Positions 8-26,291 of a stretch of 64,000 nt of DNA are shown piece by piece; the stretch's first letter is position 1, and each line of letters begins with the position of its first letter. The position numbers and the translations under genes are program-made. A model generated the notes under the pieces. The model did not search any database. It saw nothing but the letters and a program-made list of their open reading frames with translations, and was not told the origin of the DNA. The stretch is from Candidatus Latescibacterota bacterium. Lineage in GTDB: Bacteria > Krumholzibacteriota > Krumholzibacteriia > WVZY01. The stretch spans positions 320,001 through 384,000 of the forward strand of contig CAWBQK010000011.1 of NCBI GenBank assembly GCA_963791045.1, written 5' to 3'.

Positions 8-3000
8 ATGGCCAAACAAGAAAAATCACGTAAACATATTCTGGCGGCGCTTCGGGAGCGTGCCAAGGAACTCAACTGTCTCTACGCGGTCGATGAGATA
101 CTCAGTGAGCCGGATCAGGATATAGAAAATGTTATTCGTGCGATAGCGGAGGCACTCCCTGCGGGATGGCAGTACCCGGAGATTTGCCGTACCCGGGTGG
201 CGCTGCTCGACAGGGTTTATCAAACAGAAGATTTTGTGGAAACCGAGTGGAGACAATCGGCCGGAATTACAGCTCAAGGTGACGGCGTTGGCAAGGTCGA
301 AGTTTTCTATACGGATGAAAAGCCTAAGCTCGACGAAGGTCCTTTCTTGAAGGAAGAACGACGGCTCGTCGATGCCGTGGCGGAGCGAATCGGACTCTTT
401 GTTGTACAAAAGCGGCTGCGATCGGCCCATAAGAGCTGGGAAGACGCCGTCGAACAGATTTCAGACAAGTCGCACAACGACTGGATCGTCATTCTGGATT
501 TTCTCCGGCGGACCGATCAAAAACTTCTCATCCGCGTCACTCGAAAAATGATCAACCACCTTTGCTGGACTGGTGTGGATGATGCGGAGGATCTGCTTCA
601 AGAGTTTCTGTCGGAAGGTGAAGAAAGCCGGCCAACCGATGAGAACAAGCCTCTTCAGCGGTCGCGCCTCCGGAACCTTTCTGAATTGACCGACAAAACA
701 TTCAAAATTGCAACCGGTCATTACAGCGATGGTGAAATCCTTGCGTTTCTCCAGAAGTGGATTGAGGAGGACAAGACATCCGTGCTTATCGATACGCTCG
801 AGAATGCGGACAGTGATCTGGCACAGATATCGGACGCCGTCGCAAAATTCGAGACCACCGGTGTCAAAGAGCCCGAACTTTCCGTCGCGGTTCAGAAAAC
901 ACTCCGCGTGTCGCTTCTTCAGAGGCTCTTTACCGACCACATGGCATTTATCGACGTCGCAAAAAACTTCGTCGAGGTTCAGGATTTTTATGAAATTCTA
1001 CGGCACGTGATATATCCGTCCCAAAGTCACGGAAAACTCGGTGGAAAGACCGCCGGCATGTTTCTCGCCTCACAGGTTGTAAAAAAGTCGACTGAGCACT
1101 CCGAACTCTTTGCAAACCTCAAAACGCCCAAATCGTGGTTCCTCAGCTCGGACTGTCTTCGACTGTTTATGCATTTCAATAACCTCGAGGATGTTTACGA
1201 CCGTAAGTACATTGAAATTGAACGTATCCGCCAGGGCTATCAACATATCGTTCAGGTGTTCAAGAACTCACTGTTTCCACCAGAAATTGTCAAAGGTCTT
1301 GCGTCGGCACTCGATGATTTCGAAGACCGCCCACTGATCGTCAGGAGTTCAAGCCTTCTTGAGGACCGTACGGGTTCGGCGTTCTCAGGAAAATACAAGA
1401 GTCTTTTCCTTGCCAATCAGGGTACTAAAAAAGCTCGTCTTGAGGCACTTCAGGATGCAATAGCCGAAGTTTACGCATCGGTTTTCGGGCCGGACCCGAT
1501 CGAGTACAGGGCCGAAATGGGATTGCTCGATGTTCATGAAGAGATGGGGATTTTGATCCAGGAGGTTGTTGGGTCCAGAGTGGGGAAATATTTTTTCCCC
1601 GCATTTGCCGGTGTCGCATACAACAACAATGAGTTTCGCTGGTCGGCACGAATCAAGCGTGAGGACGGTCTCGTCAGGATGGTGCCCGGTCTGGGGTCCC
1701 GCGCCGTTGACCGGTTAAGCGACGATTACCCCGTGCTCTTGGCTCCGGGGCAACCGGGGTTGCGGGTCAATGTCACATCAGACGAGGTAATCCGGTACTC
1801 ACCAAATAAGATGGACGTGATCAATCTCGAGGCAAACGCGTTCGAGACGGTGGAAGTCGAAAAGCTGGTCGCAGAATGCGGTGACGATTACCCGATGGCG
1901 AAGCAGATCGTTTCCATAATAGAAGGCGATAGGGTTCGGCGGCCGGTGGGGCTCGAACCGGAGTGGGGCAAAGACGACATTGCGGTGACATTTCAGGGTC
2001 TCTTTGCCGACACAAATTTTGTGTTACAGATCCGTACGCTGATGGATCTGCTTTTGGAAAAATTCAACGCTCCGGTTGATATAGAATTCGCTCACGACGG
2101 CAAGGATTTCTATCTACTTCAGTGTCGTGCGCAGAGCCATACAGAAAAGTACGGCCCGGCTTCGATTCCCCGTAATTTGCCCGAGGATAAAGTCGTTTTT
2201 TCAGCCAACCGCTACATTTCGAACGGATACGTACCGGACATTTCGCACATCGTCTACGTCGATCCCGAGAGCTACTGCGACATCGATGATTTTCAGGTGC
2301 TCAAGGAGATCGGACGGGTGGTTGGAAAGCTCAATAAATTGTTGCCAAAACGCCAGTTTATCTTGCTGGGGCCGGGACGATGGGGCAGCCGGGGGGATAT
2401 CAAGCTTGGTGTGGATGTGACTTACTCAGACATCAATAACACGGCCGTTCTGCTCGAGATCGCGAGGCAGAAGGGCAAGTACCTTCCGGAGCTTTCTTTT
2501 GGAACCCATTTTTTTCAAGATCTCGTCGAAGCGGATATCCGATACATCCCGTTGTATCCCGATGAGCCAGATGTAGTTTTCAACGAACCGTTCCTTAAAC
2601 GGTCAAGAAACATCCTTCCCGATATTGCTCCGGAGTTCTCTCATCTTGCCGATACCGTCCGGGTCATCGATGTTCCCCAACAGACCAACGGTCAGGTTCT
2701 CCGCGTGTTGTTGAATGCTGATCTCGACGAAGCCGTGGGGATTCTTGATCTGCCGGATAAGGGGGACAAAATCGAATTTTTCGAGACTTTCAGAGTCGAT
2801 GCAACACCCGAGGAACACTGGCGATGGCGCTGCCGGATGGCTGAAAAGATTGCTGCAAACCTCGATCCCGAACGTTTCGCCGTAAAAGCCTTTTATGTAT
2901 TTGGAAGCACAAAAAATGCGACCGCCGGCCCAGGGAGCGATCTCGATATCATAATCCATTTGGACGCGAATAGCCGTCAGAGGGCGGACCTATCTTTGTG

Positions 3001-3202
3001 GCTTGATGGGTGGAGTCGTTCGCTCGCTGAAGTCAACCATCTCCGAACTGGTTACGAGATGGAAGGACTTCTCGATATTCACTATGTAACGGACGAAGAT
3101 ATTAAGAATAAATCGAGTTTTGCGGCAAAAATAGACGCCGTCACGGATGCCGCGCGTCCGCTCGTCCTGGGAAGTCGTTCGCGGAAGGACCAATGCAGGT
3201 GA
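8..3202 (+). CDS. GAF-like / PEP-synthase(PPDK)-like ATP-grasp / nucleotidyltransferase fusion protein (copy A)
   Basis: GGAGG RBS. N-terminal LRERAKELNCLY...GPFLKEE module. PPDK_N motifs GKLGGK, VRSSSLLED, FSGKYKS, IQEVVG, PGLG, DIEFA...LQCR. Then a GPGRWGS...GTHFFQDL domain and a C-terminal FGSTKNATAGPGSDLDI Pol-beta NTase motif. No pyruvate-binding barrel. Confidence 0.85.
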   Translation: MAKQEKSRKHILAALRERAKELNCLYAVDEILSEPDQDIENVIRAIAEALPAGWQYPEICRTRVALLDRVYQTEDFVETEWRQSAGITAQGDGVGKVEVFYTDEKPKLDEGPFLKEERRLVDAVAERIGLFVVQKRLRSAHKSWEDAVEQISDKSHNDWIVILDFLRRTDQKLLIRVTRKMINHLCWTGVDDAEDLLQEFLSEGEESRPTDENKPLQRSRLRNLSELTDKTFKIATGHYSDGEILAFLQKWIEEDKTSVLIDTLENADSDLAQISDAVAKFETTGVKEPELSVAVQKTLRVSLLQRLFTDHMAFIDVAKNFVEVQDFYEILRHVIYPSQSHGKLGGKTAGMFLASQVVKKSTEHSELFANLKTPKSWFLSSDCLRLFMHFNNLEDVYDRKYIEIERIRQGYQHIVQVFKNSLFPPEIVKGLASALDDFEDRPLIVRSSSLLEDRTGSAFSGKYKSLFLANQGTKKARLEALQDAIAEVYASVFGPDPIEYRAEMGLLDVHEEMGILIQEVVGSRVGKYFFPAFAGVAYNNNEFRWSARIKREDGLVRMVPGLGSRAVDRLSDDYPVLLAPGQPGLRVNVTSDEVIRYSPNKMDVINLEANAFETVEVEKLVAECGDDYPMAKQIVSIIEGDRVRRPVGLEPEWGKDDIAVTFQGLFADTNFVLQIRTLMDLLLEKFNAPVDIEFAHDGKDFYLLQCRAQSHTEKYGPASIPRNLPEDKVVFSANRYISNGYVPDISHIVYVDPESYCDIDDFQVLKEIGRVVGKLNKLLPKRQFILLGPGRWGSRGDIKLGVDVTYSDINNTAVLLEIARQKGKYLPELSFGTHFFQDLVEADIRYIPLYPDEPDVVFNEPFLKRSRNILPDIAPEFSHLADTVRVIDVPQQTNGQVLRVLLNADLDEAVGILDLPDKGDKIEFFETFRVDATPEEHWRWRCRMAEKIAANLDPERFAVKAFYVFGSTKNATAGPGSDLDIIIHLDANSRQRADLSLWLDGWSRSLAEVNHLRTGYEMEGLLDIHYVTDEDIKNKSSFAAKIDAVTDAARPLVLGSRSRKDQCR

Positions 3203-3233
3203 GGCTCACCGGTTGATGTCCTCTCAACGTGTA

Positions 3234-4094
3234 TTACAATATTTCCCGTGTTGCTTTATCCAATTCTCCAGGGTCGAAACTCACAAGCGATAGCTCGGGG
3301 CCATCGTGGGCGGCCGTGAACATGTGGGTTCGGCCGATAGTGTCTCTCCACGACCCCGTTATCCGTGCTGACTCGTGTATGTGTCCGTGAAGGGTGAGTA
3401 GTGGCCGGCGGGCTTCTATAAAACGCCGTACGGCGATGCTCCCGACATGAAGGTCGAAAGGAACGCTGTCGATCATTTTGCCGTCGAGTCCCACACGATC
3501 AAGCGCCGTCTCGTGCGGCGGTGTGTGGAAGAGCATTATCGCATTGACCAACGGTGAATCGCCGGCGAGTTCCTTGAGGTCTTTTTGGATGGTGGCGTGT
3601 CTGATGATATGGGCGGGCAGGCCGTCCGAGCGACTGCCTTCTTCGGGTGACACGGATCCGGGGGGGGTGTAGCGCGACACGTCATATCTCTCCCAGTCCT
3701 TGATCATGAACGGTGTGGGCGGAACATACGCGTAACCAAACACCTGGAAACTCCCGAAAGAGATGCGCTTTCCATGCGCATAACGCCACAATCCCTCCTC
3801 TTCGAGTCTTCGACAGGTGTCCTCTTCGGTTTTCCCGTCATCGTTGCCGAGAATGACAAACACGTCGGGGTATAGATCGCCCATTTTGGCGCGGGCGTCA
3901 CGAAGTCGCGTTGCGAGGTACCCGCCGACAAAGTCGTCCAACTCCGGATCTCCTGTGGGGTTCGAGGCGAAAGCGTGGGGCAATATATCCCCTCCGATGA
4001 ACACACCATTGGGTTCGCGGTTGACGATGGCGTCGAATAACTTGTCGAAACGGTCCACTCGTCCATGAAGATCCGAAACAAACAGGCATTTCAT
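3234..4094 (-). CDS. Calcineurin-like metallophosphoesterase (Icc-related)
   Basis: Motifs SDLHG, GGD, GNDD, FHTPP, HGHIHE. Confidence 0.9.
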   Translation of the reverse strand: MKCLFVSDLHGRVDRFDKLFDAIVNREPNGVFIGGDILPHAFASNPTGDPELDDFVGGYLATRLRDARAKMGDLYPDVFVILGNDDGKTEEDTCRRLEEEGLWRYAHGKRISFGSFQVFGYAYVPPTPFMIKDWERYDVSRYTPPGSVSPEEGSRSDGLPAHIIRHATIQKDLKELAGDSPLVNAIMLFHTPPHETALDRVGLDGKMIDSVPFDLHVGSIAVRRFIEARRPLLTLHGHIHESARITGSWRDTIGRTHMFTAAHDGPELSLVSFDPGELDKATREIL

Positions 4095-4327: not shown

Positions 4328-4342
4328 TGGCACGGCTGTTGC
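4328..4342 (+). promoter_or_regulatory. sigma54 (-24/-12) promoter upstream of pat-cydAB
   Basis: TGGCACGGCTGTTGC matches TGGCACG-N4-TTGC exactly; intergenic, about 120 nt before the pat start. Confidence 0.75.
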
Positions 4343-4464
4343 GATGTCCCCTGTAAACCAGAGCCAAAACTTTTTGCGGCCCGTCCGTGCGAGTGCCGGG
4401 GCAGAGGTGTTGAAGAGTGGCTGGGAATGTCGGGCGGGCCGCAATTGCCTAAATGGAGGAAGTT

Positions 4465-7143
4465 ATGGGACCACATTATCTAGAAAAAATATTTGCCCCC
4501 GAATCCGTCGCCGTTATCGGCGCTACGACAAGAAAAGACTCCGTGGGGGACAGGGTTTTTCAGAACATGATTGATGCCGGGTATTCTGGCGAACTCTACG
4601 CCGTCAACCCGAGGTACAAAGAGGTCCATGGAAAGAAATGTTACCCGTCCATCGAGGCGATCGGCAAACCGATCGAACTCGCCGTCATTGTGCTTCCTGC
4701 CAAGGTTGTGCCCGATGTAATCCGCCAGTGCGGGGAAAACGGTGTGCGCGGTGTTGTGGTGATTTCAGCGGGATTCCGTGAGGTGGGTCGCGAGGGCGCG
4801 CGCCTCGAGGAGCAGATGATCGAGCAGGCGCGGCGTTTTGGGATCCGTATCATTGGGCCGAACTGTCTTGGAATCATGAGACCGTCGGTGGGCCTGAACG
4901 CCACGTTTAGTCTAAACGCTGCGCTTCCAGGCGAGCTTGCGCTAGTGTCGCAGTCCGGGGCGTTGTGCACATCGATTCTCGACTGGGCGCTCCACAACAA
5001 AGTTGGGTTCTCGACAATGATTTCGATGGGGGCGTCGGCCGACGTTGACTTTGGCGAGGCCCTTGACTACCTGGCCGCCGATGCGAAAACAAAGAGCATC
5101 CTCGTCTACATCGAGGGCATTCGAATGGCGCGGCGTTTCATGAGCGGGCTCCGCGTGGCCGCGAGAATGAAGCCGGTTGTGGTTGTCAAGGCGGGTCGCT
5201 ACGCCGCCGGTTCGCGTGCGGCGATGTCGCACACGGGCTCGATCGTTGGTTCGGACGATGTGTTCGATGCGGCGCTCAGGCGCGCCGGTGTCGTCCGGGT
5301 GATAACGATCGGTGAGCTTTTCGCCTCCGCGGAAATTCTGTCGAGTGGAAGCCGGGTGAACGGCAACAGGCTGGCCGTTGTTACCAACGCCGGCGGACCC
5401 GGGGTCATCGTGGCCGATTGTGCGGTCGAACGAAACGTGTCGATTCAGGATTTTGATGAAAAAACAATGGGACAGTTGGACAAGATTCTTCCGCCGCAAT
5501 GGTCGCATGGCAATCCCGTGGATATTCTCGGAGACGCACCGCCCGAAAAATACGGAGAAGCAGTCGCGATATGTCATAAAAACAAAGACATCGACGGCGT
5601 GGCGGTGATGCTGACTCCCCAGGCGATGACACGGCCCACCGAAGCGGCCCAGCGGGTTATTGAAGCGGCCAAAAAGACCAAGAAACCGACGCTCGCTTGT
5701 TGGATGGGCGAGGATCAGGTGGAAGAGGCCCGTCGTCTGTTTACCGAAAACAGAATTCCAACATTCCGGACGCCCGAGTCGGCGGTGGCCGCATTCTCGT
5801 ACCTCGCCAGGTACAACCGGAGCCAACAGCTTCTCCTACAGGTTCCCGGTCCGCTCTCCGAACGGCACGACCCCGATGTTGACGGCGCAAAACTGGTTAT
5901 CGAAGGCGCCATAGGGGAAGGCCACAAGGTGCTTTCAACGACCGAGTCCAAGGCGCTTCTTACCGCGTTCGGAATTCCCACGATGCAAAGTGTTGAAGCC
6001 AGGTCGGCCAACGAGGCGCTGGTCGCCGCGCAGTCGCTGGGTTTTCCCGTGGCTATGAAGATCGCTTCTCATGATATCACCCACAAATCCGATGTGGGCG
6101 GCGTACGTCTCAACATAAACAGTGCCGCCACCGTGAGATCGGTCTACAACGATCTTATTTTTGCGGCAAAAAAAGCGATGCCCAAGGCGGATATCCGGGG
6201 TGTCACCATCGAGAAAATGTGCCGGAAACCCCACGGCCGCGAGCTCATGGTGGGTGTGGTCAGGGATTCAGTGTTCGGACCGACGATCAGTTTCGGGGCG
6301 GGTGGGACCACCGTGGAGATTATGAAGGATCGCGCCGTGGCGTTGCCTCCGCTCAATCAGTATCTCGTCCAGGACATGATCAAACAGACAAAGATCTCCA
6401 AGCTTCTCGACTCATTCCGCAACCTTCCCGAAGTCGACAAGGGCGCTATCGAGACGGTTCTGCTCAGAGTCTCGGAGATGGTGTGCGAGCTTCCGCAGAT
6501 CCAGGAACTCGACATCAACCCGCTTATCGTCGATGAAAACGGGGCGATGGCCGTCGACGCCCGCGTGGTGGTTGAGCACCAATCCCCGACGATGGGGCGG
6601 TACGACCATATGGCGATACACCCGTACCCGTCTCATCTCGAAAGCAATATGCAACTCCCCGACGGGAGAAACATAGTGATTCGACCCATCCGCCCGGAGG
6701 ATGCCGAGATCGAGGACACATTCGTCAGAAATCTGTCGCCGGAGTCAAAGTACTTCCGCTTCATGCATACGCTTCAGGAGCTCACCCCCAAGATGCTCGT
6801 GCGTTTTACCCAGATCGATTACGATCGCGAGATGGCGTTCATCGCGACGACCGATGTTGACGGGCGGGAAGCGGAAATCGCCGTCGGCCGTTATGTGACC
6901 AATCCCGACGGGGCCACGTGCGAGCCCGCGCTGGTCGTGGGCGATGAGTGGCGCCGGATGGGGATCGGGACAAAAATCATGGCGAGCCTTATGGACGTCG
7001 CCAGGAACAGGGGACTCACACTGATGGAAGGTGAGGTTCTCTCGGATAACTCGACAATGGTTTCGCTTGCGCGGAAGATGGGGTTCATCGTCCAAAGCTG
7101 TGATACCGATTCGAACTGCAGCTTCATGTCGAAACGGTTGTAG
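4465..7143 (+). CDS. pat: Acetate-CoA ligase (ADP-forming) family / GNAT acetyltransferase fusion (Pat/PatZ type)
   Basis: CoA-binding N-terminus (PESVAVIGA), GPNCLG, SQSGA, SHTG, NPVDILGDA, ATP-grasp HKSDVGGV/ELDINP, C-terminal GNAT (IRPIRPED, QIDYDREMA). GGAGG precedes ATG 4465. Confidence 0.92.
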   Translation: MGPHYLEKIFAPESVAVIGATTRKDSVGDRVFQNMIDAGYSGELYAVNPRYKEVHGKKCYPSIEAIGKPIELAVIVLPAKVVPDVIRQCGENGVRGVVVISAGFREVGREGARLEEQMIEQARRFGIRIIGPNCLGIMRPSVGLNATFSLNAALPGELALVSQSGALCTSILDWALHNKVGFSTMISMGASADVDFGEALDYLAADAKTKSILVYIEGIRMARRFMSGLRVAARMKPVVVVKAGRYAAGSRAAMSHTGSIVGSDDVFDAALRRAGVVRVITIGELFASAEILSSGSRVNGNRLAVVTNAGGPGVIVADCAVERNVSIQDFDEKTMGQLDKILPPQWSHGNPVDILGDAPPEKYGEAVAICHKNKDIDGVAVMLTPQAMTRPTEAAQRVIEAAKKTKKPTLACWMGEDQVEEARRLFTENRIPTFRTPESAVAAFSYLARYNRSQQLLLQVPGPLSERHDPDVDGAKLVIEGAIGEGHKVLSTTESKALLTAFGIPTMQSVEARSANEALVAAQSLGFPVAMKIASHDITHKSDVGGVRLNINSAATVRSVYNDLIFAAKKAMPKADIRGVTIEKMCRKPHGRELMVGVVRDSVFGPTISFGAGGTTVEIMKDRAVALPPLNQYLVQDMIKQTKISKLLDSFRNLPEVDKGAIETVLLRVSEMVCELPQIQELDINPLIVDENGAMAVDARVVVEHQSPTMGRYDHMAIHPYPSHLESNMQLPDGRNIVIRPIRPEDAEIEDTFVRNLSPESKYFRFMHTLQELTPKMLVRFTQIDYDREMAFIATTDVDGREAEIAVGRYVTNPDGATCEPALVVGDEWRRMGIGTKIMASLMDVARNRGLTLMEGEVLSDNSTMVSLARKMGFIVQSCDTDSNCSFMSKRL

Positions 7144-9677: not shown

Positions 9678-9703
9678 GATGTGAATGATCTGATAGGAAC
9701 CTG

Positions 9704-11485
9704 TTGCGTATGAATTCTGACGATATCACCAAAAAGCAAGCCGATCATTTGAAGTACGCCGGGCCGTCGGTTCGGACCGACGACCGATATTTCCGTCTCC
9801 TTAGTTACGAGCTGCTCAAGCTCTCGACCAGGGGGCTGTTAAGGAGAGATTTTCTCCCCAAGGTCGCAGAGATGATCAGGAAACACTGTGGATGCGAGGT
9901 GACGGAAATTTGGGTCAAGGAGGGATCGGATAAACATTTTCGATGCACAGTGAGCGGTCTGAAAAAGATGCCCTTTGGTTTTATTCTCGTGCCCTGCCCG
10001 TTGGGCGACGAGACGGATGCGTCCTTAGATGATACAGGCGAGATGAGTATTGAAAGGGTATGCTGTGAGGTGATCAAAGGGCGCGCGGCGGGTTTGTTTC
10101 CCCAGGTTACTAAACGAGGCAGCTGCTGGGATAACGGTGCCGAGGACGTGGTGGGGTCAGACGATCCCGCCGGACAAACCTCGGTGGCGAGGGTCACGCG
10201 GCGCCAAGGTTACTACAAAAGCAGGGCGTTGATTCCCATCCAACTGGAAGGGGAATGCGTGGGGCTCTTGCAGCTAAAGAGTCAAAACGCGGGGTTTTTT
10301 GCGGCGGATGATATTGGGTTTTTCGAGGACATTTCGGCTGTGCTCGGGATTGCACTCTCACATCAGTATGCCCACATCGAACTAAGGGAGCGGATCAAGG
10401 AGCTTACCTGTCTATACGGAATCGCCCGTGTGATTGCACAACCGGAGAGTTCGCTCGACGAGATTATTCAAGGGATCGTTGATCTGCTTCCACCCGCGTG
10501 GTTATACCCGGAGATTGCCAGCGCCCGCATAGTTTTGAACGACCGTGAATACACGACGGACGGTTATCGAGAGACACCCTACCGTCTCGTGTCGGACATC
10601 ATCGTGAACCGGCAGAAGATCGGTTTCGCGGAAGTTGCCTATCGTGAAATAAAGCTCACGCTGGACGAGGGTCCTTTTCTGTCCGAGGAGAGGAAACTCC
10701 TGGACAGCGTGGCTCGTGAGATTGCCAATTTCTTCGAACTTACAAAGGGTGAAAAAGAAAAGACCCTACTTCAAGACCAGCTGAGACATGCGGACAGGCT
10801 GGCAACCATCGGACAGCTTGCCGCTGGCGTGGCCCATGAACTGAATGAACCCCTGGGCAACATCCTTGGTTTGGCTGAGCTGGCTAGGAAGTCGCCGGAC
10901 CTTCCCGCACAGCTCGAAAAAGATCTGGAGGACATTGAAGCCGCATCGCTTCATGGCAGAGAAATCATCAAAAAGCTTATGACATTCGCGCGTCAGCTTC
11001 CACCACAGAAAGTTCTCGTCAACCTGAACGATGTCGTGTCCAACGCCTTGTACTTTTTCGAGGCCCGCTGCGCAAAAGCGGCAATCGAAATCGAGTATAG
11101 ACTGTTCCCCGATTTGCCAAAGATCACGGTCGATCCGGGGCAGATACAGCAGGTTCTGGTGAACCTGGTTGTCAATGCCATTCAAGCAATGCCGGGAGGG
11201 GGCGTGCTTACGGTGGAGACACGAGCGGTTGACGGGGGAGCCCGTCTGAGCGTTGGAGATACCGGAGAGGGAATCAACGATGAGAACAAGAGCCAGGTGT
11301 TCTTGCCGTTCTTTTCGACGAAAGACGTGAACGAGGGCACCGGCTTGGGCCTTGCGGTGGTTCATGGTATCATTCACGCGCATGGTGGTGAGGTCACGTT
11401 CGAAACAACGATCGGAAAAGGCGCGAGATTTGATGTTTATCTGCCGCTGGCGGCACCCAACGGATCCGAACGGATGAGCGAATGA
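9704..11485 (+). CDS. Cytoplasmic sensor histidine kinase (GAF + GAF-like module + HisKA/HATPase, NtrB-like)
   Basis: H-box [13 protein letters not shown]-box [11 protein letters not shown]1 DTGEG, G2 GTGLGL; no TM helices; contains the [12 protein letters not shown]...GPFLSEE module. Confidence 0.92.
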
Positions 11486-12834
11486 AAAACGAGACAGAGC
11501 GAGAGCACATTCTGATAGTGGACGACTCTCCGAAAACATTGGAAATGCTCGAACGGCATCTCCGGTCCGAGGGATACGAGGTAGTAGCAGCTACGGGTGT
11601 TGCGGAGGCTATCACTCTACTCGACGATACGGCTGTGGATCTGGTGATCACGGATTTGAAGATGCCCGAAATCTCGGGAATGGACCTGGTTCGTTACGTC
11701 CGCGAGAACCTGAAGACAACCGAAGTGATGATGATCACAGGTTACGCCACCGTTGAGGGTGCCGTCGATGCGATCAAGGCGGGTGCTGAGGAGTATCTGA
11801 CGAAACCTTTTACTGCGGACGAGCTCTTTTCCGCCGTCCGGCGGGCTCTCGATAAACTCAAGCTTCGAATGGCCAGCCTGGATCAGACACCACAGGATAT
11901 CAGATCTCAATACGGCATTCTCGGTGAATCGGAACCCGTCAACAAGGTGTTGAAGGCTATTACCAAGGCGGCGTCGACTGCGGCTACGGTGTTGATCACC
12001 GGTCAGAGTGGCACCGGCAAAGAACTGGTGGCCAGAGCGATACATTACAGCAGCAAACGTGTGTCAGCGCCATTCGTGCCGGTCAACTGCGGAGGAATCC
12101 CGGAGAGCCTGTTGGAAAGCGAGTTGTTTGGTTACGTCAAAGGTGCCTTTACGGGGGCGCTGGAGTCCCGGGCGGGTTTCTTCCAAACCGCCGATGGCGG
12201 TACGATTTTTCTGGATGAAGTCAGCGAGACGAGTCTCGCCATGCAGGTCAAACTCCTCAGGGTTCTTCAGGAAAGGGAAGTTTGCATGGTCGGCTCCGCG
12301 CAGTCGAGAAAAGTCAACGTGCGGGTTCTCGCAGCCACGAACAAGGATCTCTTGAGCCTGGTCAAAAAAGGCACCTTTCGCGAGGATCTTTTTTATCGGT
12401 TGAACGTGATCGAAATAGCGATTCCGCCGCTGCAGGCGAGGGGAGACGACATCATTCTTCTCACCAATCATTTTACGCGCAAGTACTCCAAGGAGGCGGA
12501 GAAGACGGAGCCTCGCTTCTCGGACAAGGCGCTGGAAATATTAAGAAACTATGCCTGGCCGGGAAACGTCCGAGAACTCGAAAACATGGTGCACAGCGTT
12601 GTCGTGATGGCGGATTCCGAGTTCATCGATGTGCCCGATCTCCCCGCACTGATGCATCATTCGGACGTGCCGGAAAAAGGGGTGCACAGGACACTGGTCG
12701 AGGTGGAGTCTGAACACATCCGCAATGTGCTGGCGTCAGTGAGTGGCAACAAGGGCCGTGCGGCCTCCATTCTTGGCATCGACCGGAAAACCTTACGGCG
12801 GAAAATAAAAGACCTCGAAGAAGACGCTGTGTAA
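11482..12834 (+). CDS. sigma54-dependent response regulator (NtrC family)
   Basis: REC (IVDD, DLKMP, KP), AAA+ GQSGTGKE, ESELFG, GAFTGA, FLDE, WPGNVREL, Fis HTH LGIDRKTL. Confidence 0.95.
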   Translation: MKNETEREHILIVDDSPKTLEMLERHLRSEGYEVVAATGVAEAITLLDDTAVDLVITDLKMPEISGMDLVRYVRENLKTTEVMMITGYATVEGAVDAIKAGAEEYLTKPFTADELFSAVRRALDKLKLRMASLDQTPQDIRSQYGILGESEPVNKVLKAITKAASTAATVLITGQSGTGKELVARAIHYSSKRVSAPFVPVNCGGIPESLLESELFGYVKGAFTGALESRAGFFQTADGGTIFLDEVSETSLAMQVKLLRVLQEREVCMVGSAQSRKVNVRVLAATNKDLLSLVKKGTFREDLFYRLNVIEIAIPPLQARGDDIILLTNHFTRKYSKEAEKTEPRFSDKALEILRNYAWPGNVRELENMVHSVVVMADSEFIDVPDLPALMHHSDVPEKGVHRTLVEVESEHIRNVLASVSGNKGRAASILGIDRKTLRRKIKDLEEDAV

Positions 12835-12875
12835 TTCTTCGCCCTCTTTCCCCTACGCAATCCGCGGGTCGTGGC

Positions 12876-13068: not shown

Positions 13069-13084
13069 TGGCACGTCACTTGAT
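13069..13084 (+). promoter_or_regulatory. sigma54 (-24/-12) promoter of the redox/glutamate operon
   Basis: TGGCACGTCACTTGAT: perfect -24 element, GG-N10-GA variant at -12; directly downstream of the sigma54 activator gene. Confidence 0.65.
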
Positions 13085-14316: not shown

Positions 14317-14357
14317 ACATTTTGTTCGTTTGAACACTCATAGAGAGAGGTGTAGCG

Positions 14358-17300: not shown

Positions 17301-17549
17301 TTCCAACCAAACATTCCCCGGGTCTACGTCGAACCGGTTCTCGACGAAGCGGCGTTAGCCGTTGACCGGTCGGAGACGCCCCGCGCGGCGGCGGATTGGC
17401 GCAAACGCAACTTCGCAGAGGTGGAGGTGTCAATGTCTCAAACGGAAGCCGCGCGGGAGGCCCGGCGATGTTTGCGGTGCGATCTCGAGTTCACCGGCCA
17501 AAAGAAAGAAAAAGATAAAGAATCCAAAACGGGGAGGCAGAGCGCGTGA
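14358..17549 (+). CDS. NuoF/HydB-like FMN/NAD-binding subunit fused to a GltD-like FAD/NAD(P)H oxidoreductase (about 5 apparent indels)
   Basis: [53 protein letters not shown]; then [45 protein letters not shown]. Frames switch near 15121, 15428, 15900, 16840 and 16930. Confidence 0.82.
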
Positions 17550-18254: not shown

Positions 18255-18273
18255 CGAAAAGGAGCAGAACAAA

Positions 18274-19864: not shown

Positions 19865-19939
19865 GATGGCCGGGGAGTTTGTGACGGGCATATGGTGCGG
19901 GGACCTCGGCTATCCACCATCCGGGAACAGGTGGGTATT

Positions 19940-21694
19940 ATGGCGGATAAAAACAACGGCTCCAACCCCCGGAAAACTCCGGGTTCCGACACAACCTCAA
20001 CCGATGGTCGCGGTTGCTTTCGCATGATCGGAACTGGAGAGATCGGAGGAAAGGCGGGGGGGCTCGCGCGGCTCGAGGAGATACTTGCACGCGACCTGGA
20101 CAGGGGCGTTTGCGCGGATGTTGAAGTAGAGATTCCGTGGTTTTGGGTGGTAGCCACCGACTGGTTCGACATGTTCATGGAAAAGAACCGGCTATACGAC
20201 ATCGCCCTGTCGGATGCCAAGGATCAGCATATCGCCAGCGCGTTTCAACGGGCGGAATTGCCCGAGGAACTGGTTCAGGAGTTAAAGAACCTTATTGCCG
20301 AGGTTCACACTCCGCTGGCTGTCAGATCCTCGGGACTTCTCGAAGATGCCCTCAACGAACCGTTTGCCGGTGTTTACGGGACCAAGATGGTTCCCAATAA
20401 CCAGTTCAGCGTGGACGGGCGTCTCCGCACCCTCATCGAGGCGATCAAGTTTGTTTACGCCTCGACTTTCTCCCGGGATGCCAAAAGCTACCGCGAAGCG
20501 ATGGGCCGTTCGCACGATGACGAGAAGATGGCGGTCATGATCCAAGAAGTGGTAGGTTTGCGCCACGGTGACCGTTTCTATCCGAATCTTTCAGGCGTGG
20601 CACGCTCGCACAACTTCTATTCGTTTGGCGGTGCCCGGCCGGAGGAAGGCGTCGTCAGCCTGGGGCTGGGTTTGGGAAAGACTATCGTGGATGGGGGAAG
20701 GAGTTGGACTTACTGCCCAGCCTACCCAAAGGCGAAGCCGCCCTTTGGATCCACAAAAGAACTTCTCGAGCAAACCCAGACGCTATTCTGGTCCGTGAAC
20801 ATGGCTAAACCACCGACATTCGATCCGATCCAGGAAACGGAATACCTTTTCGAGGGAAACCTTGCCGATGCCGAGAAAGACGGGGTACTTCCGCCAATGG
20901 CATCGACATATGACCCGCAATCCGACCGAATCACGATCGGTACGGGATCGCCCGGACCCCGCGTACTGGACTTTGCTCCATTACTCGTACTCAACCAAAT
21001 CCCGTTGAACGATCTCGTCAAACACCTTTTGAAGATTTGTGAGAATGATCTGGGCAATCCCGTCGAGATCGAATTCGCCGTTGATTTCGAGCCAGGCTCG
21101 GCGAAGCGCGCGCGGTTTGGTTTTCTCCAGGTGCGTCCGATGTACGTCTCAGAAGATCAAGTGGTAATTGAAGAGGCTGAGCTTTGTGGGGAGAATGTTT
21201 TCGTCGCATCGGAGCAGGTTCTGGGTAATGGGCAACTGGATTCGATAAAGGACGTGGTTTATGTAAAACCAGATGCCTTCTCATCGAAAGATACATGGCT
21301 CATCGCGGGGGAGTTAGAAGAGATGAACCGACATCTCGTCAAAGCGGTACGCCCATATCTCCTTGTTGTATTCGGCCGCCTAGGCACCTCGGATCCGTGG
21401 CTGGGGATACCCGCGACGTGGGGCCAGGTGTCCGGTGCGAAGGCAATCGTTGAGTCATCGACGAGCACGATGAATGTGGACATGAGTCAAGGATCTCACT
21501 TTTTTCACAACGTCACGTGTCTCCGTATCTTCTATTTTTCGGCAGACAAGACCGGGCGACTTCCCGTCGATTGGGAATGGTTGGAGCGCCAGCAGGAGGT
21601 CCGTCAGTCACGGTTCGTCCGTCACGTGGAGTTGGATGATCCGCTCCACATCAAGGTTGACGGAAACAGTGGCCGGGGGGTGATCGGTCATTAA
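19940..21694 (+). CDS. PEP-synthase/PPDK-like ATP-grasp protein, stand-alone (copy B)
   Basis: GEIGGKAGGL, AVRSSGLLED, FAGVYGT, IQEVVG, GLGKTIVDG, EIEFA, LQVRP, GRLGTSDPWLG, SQGSHFFHN. Confidence 0.85.
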   Translation: MADKNNGSNPRKTPGSDTTSTDGRGCFRMIGTGEIGGKAGGLARLEEILARDLDRGVCADVEVEIPWFWVVATDWFDMFMEKNRLYDIALSDAKDQHIASAFQRAELPEELVQELKNLIAEVHTPLAVRSSGLLEDALNEPFAGVYGTKMVPNNQFSVDGRLRTLIEAIKFVYASTFSRDAKSYREAMGRSHDDEKMAVMIQEVVGLRHGDRFYPNLSGVARSHNFYSFGGARPEEGVVSLGLGLGKTIVDGGRSWTYCPAYPKAKPPFGSTKELLEQTQTLFWSVNMAKPPTFDPIQETEYLFEGNLADAEKDGVLPPMASTYDPQSDRITIGTGSPGPRVLDFAPLLVLNQIPLNDLVKHLLKICENDLGNPVEIEFAVDFEPGSAKRARFGFLQVRPMYVSEDQVVIEEAELCGENVFVASEQVLGNGQLDSIKDVVYVKPDAFSSKDTWLIAGELEEMNRHLVKAVRPYLLVVFGRLGTSDPWLGIPATWGQVSGAKAIVESSTSTMNVDMSQGSHFFHNVTCLRIFYFSADKTGRLPVDWEWLERQQEVRQSRFVRHVELDDPLHIKVDGNSGRGVIGH

Positions 21695-21710
21695 AAAAGA
21701 AACACAGTCG

Positions 21711-24700
21711 GTGATCAATCTTCTCGAATCCCTCACTGAGCGGGCCAAGGAGTTGACCTGTCTCTATGCCATTGAAGAGGCGTTGAAAGAACCGGATGCG
21801 GATATCGATCGGGTTTGTGAACGTATCATCGAAGCGATTCCGCCGGGATGGCAATACCCGGACATCTGTGTCGCCGAGATCATTTTGGAGGGCATACAGT
21901 GCTGCCGTTCTCCTAATTTTGAAGAAACTCCCTGGCATTTGAAAACAGACATCGTTCAACAGGATCATGTGGTTGGGTCCATCGGAGTATATTACACCAA
22001 AGAGATGCCGCCGGTCGATATCGGTCCCTTTCTTAACGACGAGCAAAAGCTTATCGAGTCTATCGCAGACCGACTGAATCATTTTGTAATTTACAAGAAA
22101 ATGCAGCACGTTCTGCAGGAATGGCGGAACGGAAAAGGGGCGTTGTCGGAGACGGGCCGCGCGGATTGGGAGGCGGTGTTAGACCTTGTTCGCCAGACAG
22201 ACCATGCGCTTTTTCTTCGAATCGCCAACAAAATGCTCAATCATCTGTGTTGGAGCGGTATCGAAGAGGCAGAGACTCTGCGGCCGATGGCCGACACCCA
22301 GAAAATCGCTGCCGGCAATCTGCAGGATGGTGACGTTGAGGGGCCGCGGTTGAGCCGGTTATTGGATTTCTCTGCCGAGTTTACCGAGAGGCTTTTCCGG
22401 ATCGCAGCAAATAATTTGAGCGGGGAAGAAATTCTTTCCCGTATTCAAATGTGGATACAGGAAGACAAGATTGGTGCATTGCACCGGACCGTGCGCCGCC
22501 GTCTCCCTCTCTCCGAGGTTTCCAGCAGGTTGCGGCACTACTTTTTTACGACCCGGGACGAATCGTACGATCGTTATCCCGTCGCCAGAGGTTTAAAGGT
22601 TCTCCTTATCGAGTCGGTTCTGTCAGACCGGCTGGAATATATTGATGCGGCGAAGGATCATGTCGATATCGATGACCTCTACCATCTTCTCCAGAAGGTA
22701 ATATTCTCCGCGGATAGCCACGGAAAGCTCGGGGGAAAGAGTGCCGGGCTCATTTTGGCGTCACAGATTTTGAAGAAAACAAACGGTGGAGGAAATCCGG
22801 CGTTCCGCTTTCCCAAGACGTGGTATATCTCTTCGGACATGATGCTCGAGTCTATTCACTACAACAACATGGATGAGGTTATCGAGCAGAAATACAAAGA
22901 CATCGAAAGAGTCCGGCTCGAATATCCACACGTGATCGAAATGTTCCAGAAAACAGTTCTGCCCCCCGAAATGGTCAATGGTTTGTCCGCGGCTCTCGAC
23001 GATCTCGGAGAAAACCCCATCGTTGTACGCAGTTCATCGCTTCTTGAGGACCGTACGGGAGCGCCATTTGTTGGGTTGTACAAAAGCGTGTTTCTGGGAA
23101 ACCAGGGGCCGCGGGAGGAACGTCTCCGCCGTTTGATATCAGCGGTGACCGAGGTTTACGCGTCGAATTTTGGCCCGGATCCGATCGAGTTTCGAGCGGC
23201 CCGCGATCTGTTGGAATTGAGCGAGCAGATGGGCATCATGATCCAGCAAGTTGTAGGGGAGCGAGTCGGGCCGTATTTTTTGCCCGTGTATTCGGGGGTG
23301 GCAAGCAGCCGGATGGGGTTTCGATGGCTTCCCGATGTTGCGGAAGACAGCGGTATTGTACGCATCATGCCTGGACTTGGGACTGGAGCCTTGCGTCGAA
23401 ATCGCGAGGAACACCCCGTACTCGTTATTCCCGGGCACCCGTCGGCCGCGGTCTACGGATCTTCGGAAGAACGTATTTGTGAGGCGCCATCAAAAATCGA
23501 TGTGATCAATCTCGAGACCAACAGTATCGAAACGATCAAGATCAGCGAATTGATGACGCAATATGGAAGTGAGTTTCCGCTCGTGGAACAGATCATGTCC
23601 GAGTACAAGGACGGCGAGCTATTGCCTGTATCACCGGCTGAAAATCCGTTTAGCCTCGAAAACCAGAGACTGGTGGTCACATTCGATGGACTGCTCACAC
23701 GCAGCCCGTTTGTAGCCCAGATCCGAACTCTTCTTCGAACACTCGAGGAAGAACTCGGATCGCCCGTTGAGGTCGAGTTCGCATCGGATGGCAAGCACCT
23801 GCACATTCTACAATGCCGCACCCAAACCCCGGCGGGGATGCCCCGGCCGGCTCCTATACCCAAGGAACTGACCAGAAACCAGCTCGTCTTCTCGACGAGA
23901 CGATTTGTGTCGAACGGGCGGGCATCTAATATCACACACACCGTCTATGTGGATCCGGAGTCTTACGCCAGTATCGAAGACCCGGCGGACCGCGGCGCCA
24001 TAACACGAATTGTTTCGAGACTAAACGAATTGCTTCCCAAGAGACAGTTTGCGCTCATCTGGCCCGATCGGTTTGCCACCCATCGAGATGAGGGCGGAGC
24101 CAGTATATGTCATCGTGATTTCGATAACGCCGCCGCCCTGATTGAATTGTCCGAGCCCGAAGAAGAGAACAGCGGAAAAGCGCCCGTCGGTTTGCATGTC
24201 CTCCACGATCTCGCGGAGTCCGGAGTTCTTTATCTTCCGTTGACACCGGGTGACGAAGGGACAACGTTCAACGAACGCTTCCTCAGGCGTTCCCGCAATG
24301 TCTTCCCAGAGCTTTTTCCCGAGTATGCTCACCTTGCCGATGTGGTTCATGTGGTCGATGTTCCGAAGGTGACGGACGGAAAAGTCTTGCAGGTGTTGAT
24401 GAACGCTGAACTTGGCGAAGCCGTTGGATTGCTTTCGGATCCTGGAGAAAAGATGGGATACCCCGAGGAAAGGGAGCCCGTCGAAGATGGACGCCCCGAA
24501 GATTACTGGCGTTGGCGTCACCGCATGGCCGAACAGATTGCCGGGCAGTTGGATCCGGTACGCTTCGGGGTCGAACGTATTTATCTTTTTGGCAGCACGA
24601 AGAACGGTACCGCAGGCCCGGGAAGCGATATCGACATTCTGGTTCACTTTAAGGGTACGAAATCCCAGAGAGAATTGCTCGTCCAGTGGTTGGAGGGTTG

Positions 24701-24884
24701 GAGTCTTTGCCTCGATGAAATCAACTACCTTCGGACGGGATACCGAGCAGGCGGCTTGCTCGACTTTCACATCATCACCGATAAAGATATCGCAAAGAAG
24801 ACAAGCTATGCCGTCAAAATCAACGCCGTCACTGATGCGGCGCGTCCGTTGAATATGAAAGAAACCAGCGATGATGCACGGTAG
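21711..24884 (+). CDS. GAF-like / PPDK-like ATP-grasp / nucleotidyltransferase fusion protein (copy C, paralog of 8..3202)
   Basis: ERAKELTCLY...GPFLNDE; GKLGGKSAG, VRSSSLLED, PGLG, EVEFA..LQCR; FGSTKNGTAGPGSDIDI; collinear with copy A over its full length. Confidence 0.85.
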   Translation: MINLLESLTERAKELTCLYAIEEALKEPDADIDRVCERIIEAIPPGWQYPDICVAEIILEGIQCCRSPNFEETPWHLKTDIVQQDHVVGSIGVYYTKEMPPVDIGPFLNDEQKLIESIADRLNHFVIYKKMQHVLQEWRNGKGALSETGRADWEAVLDLVRQTDHALFLRIANKMLNHLCWSGIEEAETLRPMADTQKIAAGNLQDGDVEGPRLSRLLDFSAEFTERLFRIAANNLSGEEILSRIQMWIQEDKIGALHRTVRRRLPLSEVSSRLRHYFFTTRDESYDRYPVARGLKVLLIESVLSDRLEYIDAAKDHVDIDDLYHLLQKVIFSADSHGKLGGKSAGLILASQILKKTNGGGNPAFRFPKTWYISSDMMLESIHYNNMDEVIEQKYKDIERVRLEYPHVIEMFQKTVLPPEMVNGLSAALDDLGENPIVVRSSSLLEDRTGAPFVGLYKSVFLGNQGPREERLRRLISAVTEVYASNFGPDPIEFRAARDLLELSEQMGIMIQQVVGERVGPYFLPVYSGVASSRMGFRWLPDVAEDSGIVRIMPGLGTGALRRNREEHPVLVIPGHPSAAVYGSSEERICEAPSKIDVINLETNSIETIKISELMTQYGSEFPLVEQIMSEYKDGELLPVSPAENPFSLENQRLVVTFDGLLTRSPFVAQIRTLLRTLEEELGSPVEVEFASDGKHLHILQCRTQTPAGMPRPAPIPKELTRNQLVFSTRRFVSNGRASNITHTVYVDPESYASIEDPADRGAITRIVSRLNELLPKRQFALIWPDRFATHRDEGGASICHRDFDNAAALIELSEPEEENSGKAPVGLHVLHDLAESGVLYLPLTPGDEGTTFNERFLRRSRNVFPELFPEYAHLADVVHVVDVPKVTDGKVLQVLMNAELGEAVGLLSDPGEKMGYPEEREPVEDGRPEDYWRWRHRMAEQIAGQLDPVRFGVERIYLFGSTKNGTAGPGSDIDILVHFKGTKSQRELLVQWLEGWSLCLDEINYLRTGYRAGGLLDFHIITDKDIAKKTSYAVKINAVTDAARPLNMKETSDDAR

Positions 24885-24926
24885 TTATTTTAACAACAAG
24901 CACGAACCACAGAGGGGAGCCAATAA

Positions 24927-26291
24927 ATGGCCTCGTATGTTCAAAAGCTGATGGCCGAGGTTCGATCGAAAAACCCCGCCGAACTCGAATTTCACGAGGT
25001 CGTCCAGGATCTTGCCGAGTCTCTGATCCCTGTCCTGGAGCGCAACCCCCACTACGCCGAAGCCAGGATTCTCGAACGGATAATTGAACCTGAACGGACA
25101 CTGGGGTTTCGCGTTTCCTGGGTGGACGACGCGGGCCGCATCCAGATCAACCGCGGTTACCGTGTTGAAATGAACGGTTCGATTGGGCCCTACAAAGGTG
25201 GCCTTCGATTTCATCCCTCGGTCAACCAGAGCATCTTCAAGTCCCTCGCTTTGGAGCAAGTGTTCAAGAACAGTCTCACCACGTTACCGTTGGGTGCAGG
25301 AAAGGGTGGGTCTGATTTCGATCCTAAAGGAAAGAGCGATCATGAGGTCATGCGTTTTTGCCAGGCCTTCATGAACGAGCTGTATCGTCACATCGGCCCG
25401 AACACCGATATTCCGGATGGTGACATTGGTGTTGGCGGCCGTGAAATCGGGTACCTGTTCGGCCAATACCGCAAGCTCAAGAACGAGTTTACGGGTGTGT
25501 TGACCGGAAAAGGGCTCGGTTGGGGAGGCTCGGTGATGCGGCCGGAAGCGCCGGGTTACGGTGTCGCCTATCTCGCCGAAGAGATGCTTGCCACAAAAGG
25601 CGAAGCCCTCGAAGGCAAGACGTGCCTGGTTTCAGGGAGCGGGAAAGTAGCACAGTTTGTCATGGAAAAGCTAATCGATCTTGGCGCGAAGGTTGTTACG
25701 TTCTCGGATTCAAGCGGTTGTGTATACGATTCGGATGGTGTCGACCGCGAGAAACTGGAATGGCTCAAGGAACTCAAGAACGTACGCAGGGGCCGCACGA
25801 TGGATTATGCAAAGGAATATCCGAGCGCCGAGTACCTGTCGGCGGATGCGGGTGATCTCGACGAAAATGCTATTTGGACCCGAAAAGGGGATTGTGCCTT
25901 TCCCTGTGCCACACAGAACGAGATTAGTCGTAAAGATGCCGAGAATCTTCTTCAAAACGGAATCCAACTGGTTTGCGAAGGGGCTAGCATGCCCACGACG
26001 CCTGAAGGGATAAAGCTTTTTATCGATCGGCGCGTTCTTTACGCCCCGGGAAAAGCGGCGAACGCGGGTGGTGTGGCGGTATCGGGTCTGGAAATGGCGC
26101 AGAACAGTGCTCGCTACCCCTGGACTCGTGACGAGGTGGATACGCGGCTCCGATTGATCATGAAAGGAATCCACGATGCCTGTTTGACGGCTGCCGTGGA
26201 GTATGGCACGCCGGGCAATTATGTGAACGGCGCAAACATCGCCGGGTTTATCAAGGTGGCTGATGCCATGCTCGACCAGGGAGTGGTCTGA
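24927..26291 (+). CDS. gdhA: Glutamate dehydrogenase, NADP-specific GdhA family (divergent motifs)
   Basis: GPYKGGLRFHPSVN, FKNSLT, GKGGSDFDPK, GDIGVGGREIG, PCATQNE, PGKAANAGGVAVS, GANIAGF. Confidence 0.9.
   Translation: MASYVQKLMAEVRSKNPAELEFHEVVQDLAESLIPVLERNPHYAEARILERIIEPERTLGFRVSWVDDAGRIQINRGYRVEMNGSIGPYKGGLRFHPSVNQSIFKSLALEQVFKNSLTTLPLGAGKGGSDFDPKGKSDHEVMRFCQAFMNELYRHIGPNTDIPDGDIGVGGREIGYLFGQYRKLKNEFTGVLTGKGLGWGGSVMRPEAPGYGVAYLAEEMLATKGEALEGKTCLVSGSGKVAQFVMEKLIDLGAKVVTFSDSSGCVYDSDGVDREKLEWLKELKNVRRGRTMDYAKEYPSAEYLSADAGDLDENAIWTRKGDCAFPCATQNEISRKDAENLLQNGIQLVCEGASMPTTPEGIKLFIDRRVLYAPGKAANAGGVAVSGLEMAQNSARYPWTRDEVDTRLRLIMKGIHDACLTAAVEYGTPGNYVNGANIAGFIKVADAMLDQGVV

Follow-up and report, generated by a model that had tools for sequence, protein, structure and literature searches.

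Enzymes of the phosphoenolpyruvate (PEP) synthase, pyruvate phosphate dikinase (PPDK) and rifampin phosphotransferase families, together with nucleotidyltransferases (NTases) of the Pol-beta type, are the described proteins closest to a set of proteins encoded beside glutamate dehydrogenase (GDH) genes in the stretch of DNA analysed here. This stretch of 64,000 nucleotides (nt), hereafter the window, covers positions 320,001 to 384,000 of contig CAWBQK010000011.1 (C11:320001-384000) in a Candidatus Latescibacterota genome bin of 3.66 Mb (21 contigs, 81% complete). We know of no dedicated enzyme system for the covalent control of a bacterial GDH, and none was found in the literature searched. 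AceK controls isocitrate dehydrogenase, and the logic that we propose below for the GDH-linked proteins is similar to that of AceK or of GlnE/GlnD, the enzymes being unrelated. In Campylobacter jejuni, an NTase of a different class from the one described below follows the enzyme Cj1418 in its pathway, within a capsule locus. According to its published descriptions, Cj1418, earlier annotated as PEP synthase/PPDK, is an L-glutamine kinase (PMC10971088, PMC6429109). For the GDH of Thermus thermophilus, the published account describes a regulatory GdhA subunit and an AMP-binding APRT homologue (PMC12301742).

The genome studied here carries two cassettes in which a GDH gene is combined with proteins containing the PPDK_N ATP-grasp domain. 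The features of the window that belong to these cassettes are the following, with the methods that identified them (AlphaFold2 is abbreviated AF2).

8..3202, + strand: long protein A (P0001, 1064 residues), of the canonical cassette type; Pfam, alignment, AF2, Foldseek
3234..4094, - strand: metallophosphoesterase (MPE, 286 residues), convergent with long protein A; Pfam Metallophos
19892..21694, + strand: short protein B (P0003, 600 residues), PPDK_N followed by an alpha/beta domain; Pfam
21711..24884, + strand: long protein B (P0002, 1057 residues), same architecture as long protein A; Pfam
24927..26291, + strand: gdhA, E. coli-type NADP-GDH (454 residues), directly 3' of long protein B; Pfam, NCBIfam

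P0001 is directly preceded, 5' of the window, by a gene for a XylR_N/V4R sigma54 activator, by another gdh, which is of the archaeal/Bacillus type (450 residues), and by a fourth PPDK_N protein of 586 residues (short protein A), whose gene stops 38 nt 5' of P0001. Because these upstream genes add a second set, the triad of gdh, short PPDK_N protein and long PPDK_N-NTase protein is present twice in the genome: a canonical cassette made of the upstream gdh, short protein A, long protein A and the MPE, and a divergent one made of short protein B, long protein B and gdhA.

The three window proteins matched PF01326 (PPDK_N) with 172, 141 and 143 bits for a cut-off of 27 (E 2e-50 to 9e-41), and the two long proteins are 44% identical over their full length. 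In P0001, a GAF-like sensor module (residues ~10-135) and a helical region (~158-335) precede the ATP-grasp domain (343-720), which is followed by an alpha/beta domain (~720-930) bearing the motifs GPGRWGSRGD and SFGTHFF and the invariant His747 and His834, and finally by a minimal Pol-beta NTase (~935-1057) with the signature G966-S967...D978-x-D980. The short protein corresponds to the centre of the long one: P0003 aligns to residues 338-842 of P0002 (26% identity, E 4e-36) and has the same alpha/beta domain, with the motif GRxG...SQGSHFF. Across 72 aligned long proteins the ATP-grasp motifs GGK, RSSSLLE and EF...LQC, His747, His834, G966, S967 and D978 are invariant, and D980 is kept in at least 90% of them; GRxG and QGxHF are invariant in 58 short proteins. 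In the clade of P0002, which includes L008-L010, the GPGRWGS motif is relaxed and the His, ATP-grasp and NTase motifs are kept. The MPE matched PF00149 with 30.6 bits (cut-off 21.5) and displays the metal-ligand motifs DxH, GD, GNDD, H and GHxH, motif III being GNDD instead of GNH[DE]; D8, H10, D36, N84, H190, H238 and H240 occur without exception in 41 sequences. Its closest named relatives are phosphodiesterases of the YfcE/aq_1956 type. The MPE sequence alone gave no match in the PDB, and its profile matched only 2yvt (E 0.0097) and 1su1 (E 0.1) among PDB sequences.

Like PEP synthase, PPDK and rifampin phosphotransferase, the cassette proteins combine a nucleotide-binding ATP-grasp domain with a conserved His in the domain that follows it. 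Unlike those enzymes, they have neither the PF00391 swivel domain nor the PEP/pyruvate barrel; they carry instead the GRWGS/G[ST]HFF alpha/beta domain, to which the long protein adds the sensor, helical and NTase domains. Pfam found no PF00391 in the long and short proteins, and genome-wide only three other proteins bear it; no PEP/pyruvate-binding TIM barrel was detected by Pfam in the window proteins or in the upstream short protein. NCBIfam PEP synthase models aligned to the ATP-grasp domain only, with 17-57 bits for cut-offs of 598-1063 (44.6 bits for a cut-off of 883 in one case). The original prediction had described three PPDK_N proteins without a pyruvate-binding barrel, two of them fused to an NTase, and this description agrees with both the Pfam scan and the genome search for PF00391.

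The AF2 model of P0001 has a mean predicted local distance difference test (pLDDT) of 79.8, and in Foldseek its centre best matched rifampin phosphotransferase (5hv3/5hv1), PEP synthase (2ols), HpeI and PPDK (1dik), with rifampin phosphotransferase and HpeI at the top. Its N-terminus gave weak matches to the GAF domains of PDE5A and PDE6C (E 2e-2), and residues 1-336 matched no Pfam model, even with the threshold set at E 10. The model made separately for residues 715-1064 (pLDDT 85.1) retrieved from the PDB only minimal NTases (2rff, the MNT antitoxins 7ae9/7bxo, AadA/ANT) with E 6e-3 to 3e-2 and probabilities of 0.9-1.0; this Foldseek search contained no swivel-domain match and no PDB fold match for the 720-930 alpha/beta His domain. 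A long-protein profile matched, among PDB sequences, only the ATP-grasp of rifampin phosphotransferase and PEP synthase. Compared by hhalign with the 883-residue PF00391-bearing protein of the same genome, probably its PPDK, the His domain gave nothing, the single weak match lying in the ATP-grasp region (probability 24%), and nothing was obtained against the Pat-like acetyltransferase of the window. A search of the ESM Atlas with the His domain reached a best score of 0.85 and returned only unnamed fragments or fragments called 'putative PEP synthase'.

The NTase shares with MntA/MNT, the type VII toxin-antitoxin antitoxins that AMPylate HepT, and with ANT/AadA the overall fold and the GS...DxD motif, together with a weak match to the NCBIfam MntA model. 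Unlike MntA/MNT, it scores below the cut-off (20.6 and 26.3 bits, cut-off 60) and is fused to a 930-residue protein; no HEPN domain was reported in the Pfam scan of 20 window open reading frames (ORFs). The likeness to GlnE/GlnD lies in the logic only, namely a Pol-beta NTase and a hydrolase beside an enzyme of nitrogen assimilation, with sigma54/NtrC regulators nearby in this genome. Unlike GlnE/GlnD, the cassette is linked to GDH and not to glutamine synthetase or PII, its NTase is a minimal one of ~120 residues, and the GDH link outlives the loss of the NTase. For the NTase region Pfam gives only NTP_transf_2, Polbeta and MTPAP-like, and no GlnE/GlnD-specific, HD or ACT domain. With Thermus GDH (PMC12301742), the cassette has in common a dedicated partner at a dehydrogenase of the carbon/nitrogen branch point, and an impaired GDH paralogue that may be a regulatory subunit; the partner families of Thermus GDH and of AceK are unrelated to the cassette proteins. 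Cj1418 is comparable, by its description, as a PEP synthase/PPDK-annotated enzyme acting on an amino acid of glutamate metabolism (PMC10971088, PMC6429109); unlike the cassette, its pathway is not known to include a GDH, a sensor or a phosphodiesterase.

Relatives of P0002 are numerous: 5295 proteins among 8000 candidates scored reached E <= 0.001, and the best 120 of them (898-1634 residues, query coverage of at least 84%) bear, where they are named at all, the names 'pyruvate, water dikinase', 'predicted nucleotidyltransferase', 'PEP/pyruvate-binding domain-containing protein' or 'hypothetical protein'. In the databases and literature searched we found no name, no Pfam or NCBIfam model and no paper for the architecture or for its link to GDH, in line with the original prediction, which knew of no characterised protein built in this way; one paper cites PPDK_N merely as a kinase-like outgroup (PMC3281104). 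Judged by the features that define PEP synthase/PPDK, GlnE/GlnD and MntA, the architecture belongs to none of these, and it is its function that we infer.

In order to examine the conservation of the neighbourhood, relatives were scanned with one genome per species, which gave at least 579 confirmed stretches, some of which may be kinases, since the patterns searched for fall within the sensor module. The best 80 are near-full-length relatives (from query residues 1-8 to 1044-1057) of different species from more than 10 phyla, labelled Zixibacteria, Aminicenantes, Ignavibacteria, Planctomycetota, Calditrichota, Cloacimonadota, Eisenbacteria, Bacteroidota, Gemmatimonadota and others. Among the carriers of the cassette are cultured organisms, by the labels Melioribacter and Caldithrix of L047, L053 and L071. 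Each window protein was compared by tblastn with these 80 loci, and the genes found near the long gene were as follows.

Short PPDK_N protein: 64/80 loci
GDH: 63/80 loci, 53 with an archaeal-type enzyme (identity to the upstream gdh 67-79%) and 10 with an E. coli-type one
MPE: 51/80 loci
Response regulator: 5/80 loci
nuoE: 4/80 loci
Histidine kinase: 4/80 loci
GltB-FMN: 3/80 loci
pat: 0/80 loci
cydA/B: 0/80 loci

The commonest gene order is gdh, short, long, apparently in one operon. The short gene lies directly upstream of the long one on the same strand in 57 of the 69 loci with enough flank, gdh lies just 5' of the short gene in 38 of 65, and in 45 of the 69 the MPE is found at most 600 nt 3' of the long gene, in most cases in convergent orientation. 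When at least 5 kb was available on both sides (n=33), GDH was present within 10 kb in 32 loci, the short protein in 28, the MPE in 23 and all three in 21. By comparison, we estimate the chance of finding a gdh within 10 kb of a given gene at about 2%, assuming 1-3 gdh genes in 3-4 Mb. An unbiased clustering of 925 flanking ORFs again retrieved the short, GDH and MPE families (79, 57 and 47 loci), the next family being present in 8 loci. The arrangement of the second cassette, with an E. coli-type gdhA directly after long protein B, is repeated in L008-L010. Six Aminicenantes loci (L020, L022, L024, L030, L044, L058) have an additional short-type paralogue of ~555 residues on the minus strand at ~16.3-18.3 kb, 3' of the MPE, which is 24-25% identical to the upstream short protein.

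Co-occurrence was assessed in 121 genomes from the window's own phylum, the long-type protein being called at E <= 1e-50. It was present in 82 of them. GDH matches were bimodal, at 65-81% identity versus 51% and below, and the high class was found in 78 genomes: 77 had both the long protein and this cassette-type GDH, 5 the long protein only, 1 that GDH only and 38 neither. The MPE was detected in 65 genomes, 63 of which have the long protein. These counts overstate independence because the sampled genomes are kin. Together, these data show that GDH and the PEP synthase-like ATP-grasp/His-domain proteins form a widespread and tightly co-inherited unit, usually accompanied by the sensor/NTase extension and the phosphodiesterase. 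The linkage of the PPDK_N/NTase proteins to gdh and to the phosphoesterase, which had been put forward from the window alone, is thus conserved; the linkage to nuo/glt genes and to the histidine kinase and response regulator, proposed at the same time, is confined to 3-5 of the 80 loci.

The cassette GDHs form a clade of their own, with distinctive features. The window gdhA matched NCBIfam PRK09414 with 700.8 bits (cut-off 536). Both gdh copies of the genome have both ELFV domains, and the upstream copy keeps, as K129, the lysine of the GGxKGG motif, which we take to be the catalytic lysine of GDH. Cassette GDH aligns end to end with the Thermococcus/Pyrococcus enzyme (E 5e-120), and 46 cassette sequences have a mean column identity of 73%; the two linked classes, archaeal-type and E. 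coli-type, are only ~30% identical to each other. Two insertions, one of 6 residues in the motif S[CS]WDQx[DE]xxSYx[FY] and one of 4 residues, characterise cassette GDHs: 7 non-cassette GDHs of the same phylum lack them, and two ~50%-identical GDHs encoded beside long genes have both. The first insertion follows the strand that, in GDH structures, ends at the coenzyme-specificity position. Ten of the 46 cassette GDHs (L020, L022, L024, L026, L029, L030, L037, L040, L044 and L058; 8 labelled Aminicenantes and 2, L026 and L029, Eubacteriales) have S, T, H or N in place of the GGxKGG lysine. Judged from this substitution, these lysine-less proteins may be pseudoenzymes, and since they are still ~68-70% identical, the role of cassette GDH would not be simply catalysis. 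An E. coli-type GDH is also present in 8 of the 10 loci (L020, L022, L024, L026, L029, L030, L040, L044); tblastn found a partial one in L058 and none in L037. A complex prediction of GDH with residues 715-1064 of the long protein, run without controls, scored 0.00 and weighs neither way.

Shorter variants of the cassette indicate which of its parts go with GDH. We examined 16 such loci, 8 of each of two types. In type ii, the order is short', gdh, long', where long' is without the GAF-like module; gdh is directly upstream of long' in 8/8 loci, short' lies 5' of that gdh in 7/8, an extra E. coli-type gdh is found in 4/8, and the MPE in 0/8. In type iii the protein (~776 residues) has neither GAF-like module nor NTase; a cassette-type gdh, mostly convergent and adjacent, is inside the locus (9.7-16.3 kb fetched) in 7/8 cases, and the MPE and the short protein are both absent (0/8). 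These variants imply that the constant partner of GDH is the core made of the helical region, the ATP-grasp and the His domain. Type i, the commonest version, is the one that combines NTase, sensor module and MPE. NMPylation by the NTase, that is transfer of a nucleoside monophosphate (NMP), cannot be the core of the GDH link, because the link persists in the NTase-less type iii variants.

Natural fusions provide a further view of the cassette proteins. P0093 (1634 residues) is a fusion of short and long proteins, which over its residues 23-573 has 53% identity with the upstream short protein, and its existence shows that short and long act together. The sensor module is also found elsewhere in the window, since residues 227-343 of the histidine kinase are 36% identical to residues 8-125 of P0002 (E 1e-22), as had been proposed. 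A fifth PPDK_N paralogue on contig C12 (L006 / L088:9633-12017) was considered as the PpsA of the genome and rejected: it is a short-type protein fused to a receiver (REC) domain and cut by the contig end. Its full-length homologues have ~990 residues and make up a large family of response regulators, with a PF00072 receiver ahead of the short-type module in 105 of the 120 listed; some of these homologues are named 'histidine kinase' or 'CheY-like'. The module is thus used in signal transduction, and its fusions to GAF-like and REC domains suggest that it is a signalling output. Longer GDH forms include fusions with HD_5/GGDEF or with REC/PAS/HD and, in Scalindua/Brocadiia, with phosphoglycerate kinase (P0257, P0258, P0272-P0303).

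On this basis, we tentatively propose, with a little less than even confidence, that the cassette controls its GDH covalently, by ATP-dependent loading of the invariant His, transfer of a phosphate or an NMP to GDH, and reversal by the phosphodiesterase. In such a mechanism the short and long proteins would form a complex, which would be triggered by the binding of a metabolite to the GAF-like module. ATP would be used to load the invariant His, and the phosphate, or an NMP via the NTase, would then be passed to GDH and switch its activity. The clade-specific loop S[CS]WDQx[DE]xxSY by the coenzyme site is a candidate for the place of modification. The phosphodiesterase would remove the mark. 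Several points weigh against this proposal. The His domain has no detectable relative of known phosphohistidine function by PF00391, Foldseek or hhalign, and no GDH-PPDK_N fusion was seen in the 120 longer GDH forms that were listed out of 125. The GDH link survives without the NTase and without the MPE, so that NMPylation and erasure would be accessory at most. Regulators that are operon mates of their target and paired with it 1:1 are unusual, and a metabolic pathway would account for operon membership more simply. Finally, the related genomes in which the co-occurrence was counted are not independent samples.

Such a small-molecule pathway would have the PEP synthase-like proteins phosphorylate a metabolite derived from the glutamate, glutamine or 2-oxoglutarate supplied by GDH, the NTase convert the product into a nucleoside diphosphate derivative, and the phosphodiesterase degrade it, the end product being a metabolite or an alarmone. 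Besides the operon shared with a metabolic enzyme, it has in its favour that PEP synthase-like ATP-grasp kinases of small molecules are known, rifampin phosphotransferase and HpeI being the top fold matches of P0001, and that the fold of the NTase is also similar to that of ANT/AadA, which adenylylate small molecules. A synthase together with a phosphodiesterase is moreover the usual layout of second-messenger systems. Cj1418 offers a precedent (PMC10971088, PMC6429109). However, GDHs without the catalytic lysine remain in the operon in 10 of the 46 loci, the fusions with GAF-like and REC domains suggest that the output is signalling and not a step in a biosynthesis, the clustering of flanking ORFs revealed no further pathway enzyme conserved nearby, and variant cassettes exist without NTase and MPE. 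We consider this pathway somewhat unlikely.

Non-covalent regulation, in which the short and long proteins would be ATP/AMP- and metabolite-sensing subunits that tune GDH allosterically, with the cassette GDH, a pseudoenzyme in some lineages, as a sensing or regulatory subunit, fits the fact that GDH copies and ATP-grasp proteins are paired 1:1 and the presence of E. coli-type GDH genes next to lysine-less ones. Thermus GDH supplies a precedent (PMC12301742). Against it, the ATP-grasp, the NTase and the MPE keep their catalytic residues unchanged across phyla, which favours a chemistry and not binding alone, and mixed hexamers are unlikely since the two GDH classes are only ~30% identical. Regulation by binding alone thus appears quite improbable.

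The original prediction took the whole 26-kb locus as one glutamate/redox signalling and protein-modification circuit. All the genes that it named were found by the Pfam scan of the window ORFs; those outside the cassettes, with the sigma54-like sites, are listed here.

4328..4342, + strand: exact match to the sigma54 -24/-12 consensus (TGGCAC-N5-TTGC), TGGCACGGCTGTTGC, 111 nt 5' of the pat start
4453-7143: Pat-like acetyltransferase (CoA-ligase/ATP-grasp_5 and GNAT); Pfam
7330-9677: cydAB; Pfam
9704..11485, + strand: histidine kinase (GAF, sensor module at residues 227-343, HisKA, HATPase_c); Pfam
11482..12834, + strand: NtrC-type sigma54 activator (REC, Sigma54_activat AAA, HTH_8); Pfam
13069..13083, + strand: weak sigma54-like site, TGGCACGTCACTTGA, with the -12 GC replaced by GA (TTGA), ~400 nt 5' of nuoE
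13465-14316, + strand: NuoE-like gene; Pfam
14358-~17549, + strand: NuoF-GltD fusion, frameshifted; ORFs of relatives
17546-18254, + strand: NuoG-N-terminal-like gene, frameshifted; ORFs of relatives
18362-19864, + strand: GltB-FMN-like gene (Glu_synthase-like); Pfam

The presence of all these genes speaks for a single circuit, as do the exact sigma54 site before pat and a one-mismatch sigma54-like site, TGGCATGTGAGTTGC, 5' of the upstream gdh. A histidine kinase/response regulator pair also lies directly 5' of gdh-short-long in L035 and L070, and a NuoE/NuoF-GltD/NuoG/GltB cluster adjoins the GDH cassettes of close relatives, and of these only (L008-L010, L097). The neighbour counts contradict the idea that the 26 kb are conserved as one unit: pat and cydAB never occur near the long gene, and GltB-FMN, nuoE, the histidine kinase and the response regulator are found in 3, 4, 4 and 5 of the 80 loci. 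The kinase and the sigma54 activator are lineage-specific neighbours outside the conserved cassette. Of the two sigma54 promoters that had been proposed, the one at 4328 is exact, whereas that at 13069 has one mismatch, and sites with at most one mismatch are no more frequent than expected by chance (3 observed, 3.4 expected). In 45 other loci, no -24/-12 site was found upstream of gdh over a distance of 350 nt, so that sigma54 control is a lineage feature at most. A single circuit spanning the whole locus is accordingly highly improbable.

The predicted NuoEFG-like/GltB-FMN genes are indeed present, but the reading frames of NuoF-GltD and of the NuoG-like gene are broken. NuoF-GltD has about 5 frame changes, near 15.1, 15.44, 15.9, 16.84 and 16.93 kb, and the NuoG-like gene has one near 17.9 kb, whereas in relatives the former is a single intact ORF (1059 residues in L097, 1061 in L008) and the latter a single ORF of 232-248 residues. 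Near-identical short contigs from the public run X4 have 4 letters fewer at 15415-15424 and 1 fewer at 17882, at a depth of 2-4; among the public sequencing runs over 14300-18300, no RNA run is listed and the DNA runs hold a small share only. The frameshifts probably arise from local assembly error, which is likelier than real decay. A second cluster of split genes, with short + strand ORFs in shifting frames, occupies 39800-44400 and includes a split zinc-dependent alcohol dehydrogenase (41022-41768 / 41443-41865) and a radical-SAM fragment (40353-40814); this pattern suggests that the assembly has indel errors here. A small Cys-rich ORF of ~65 residues (CxxC...C...WxC) lies at ~13219-13416 on the + strand, between nuoE and the weak sigma54-like site. 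Upstream of the window, L007:2886-11475 holds an Rnf-type cluster (RnfC/D/G/E/A-like genes and a GltD/FeS fusion), ApbE and a multihaem cytochrome c3-like gene.

We give next to no credence to the view that the long and short proteins are ordinary PEP synthase/PPDK paralogues whose synteny with GDH is due to chance or hitch-hiking: the name 'pyruvate, water dikinase' and the weak NCBIfam matches over the ATP-grasp point that way, against scores far below the cut-offs, the lack of swivel and TIM barrel with PF00391 on separate proteins of the genome, and synteny and co-occurrence across phyla.

Covalent control of GDH by the cassette, the reading that we tentatively favour, can be extended to the whole family. 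PPDK_N with the GRWGS/G[ST]HFF His domain could then be a new signalling output, an ATP-dependent phosphohistidine (di)kinase driven by GAF-like sensors or by receivers, which would covalently switch a dedicated GDH at its clade-specific loop, the lysine-less GDH serving as a glutamate/2-oxoglutarate sensor. In this full form the proposal is doubtful, and we hold it unlikely to be right in every part. If true, it would reveal a nitrogen and carbon control system, widespread across many mostly uncultured phyla, for which no counterpart has been characterised. GDH stands where the metabolism of carbon meets that of nitrogen, and in many anaerobic, protein-degrading sediment bacteria it is the entry to amino-acid catabolism. 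Working out the function of the cassette would explain thousands of entries named 'PEP/pyruvate-binding domain protein', would give a chemistry to a new output domain of response regulators, and would provide a testable model for the gating of glutamate oxidation versus assimilation.

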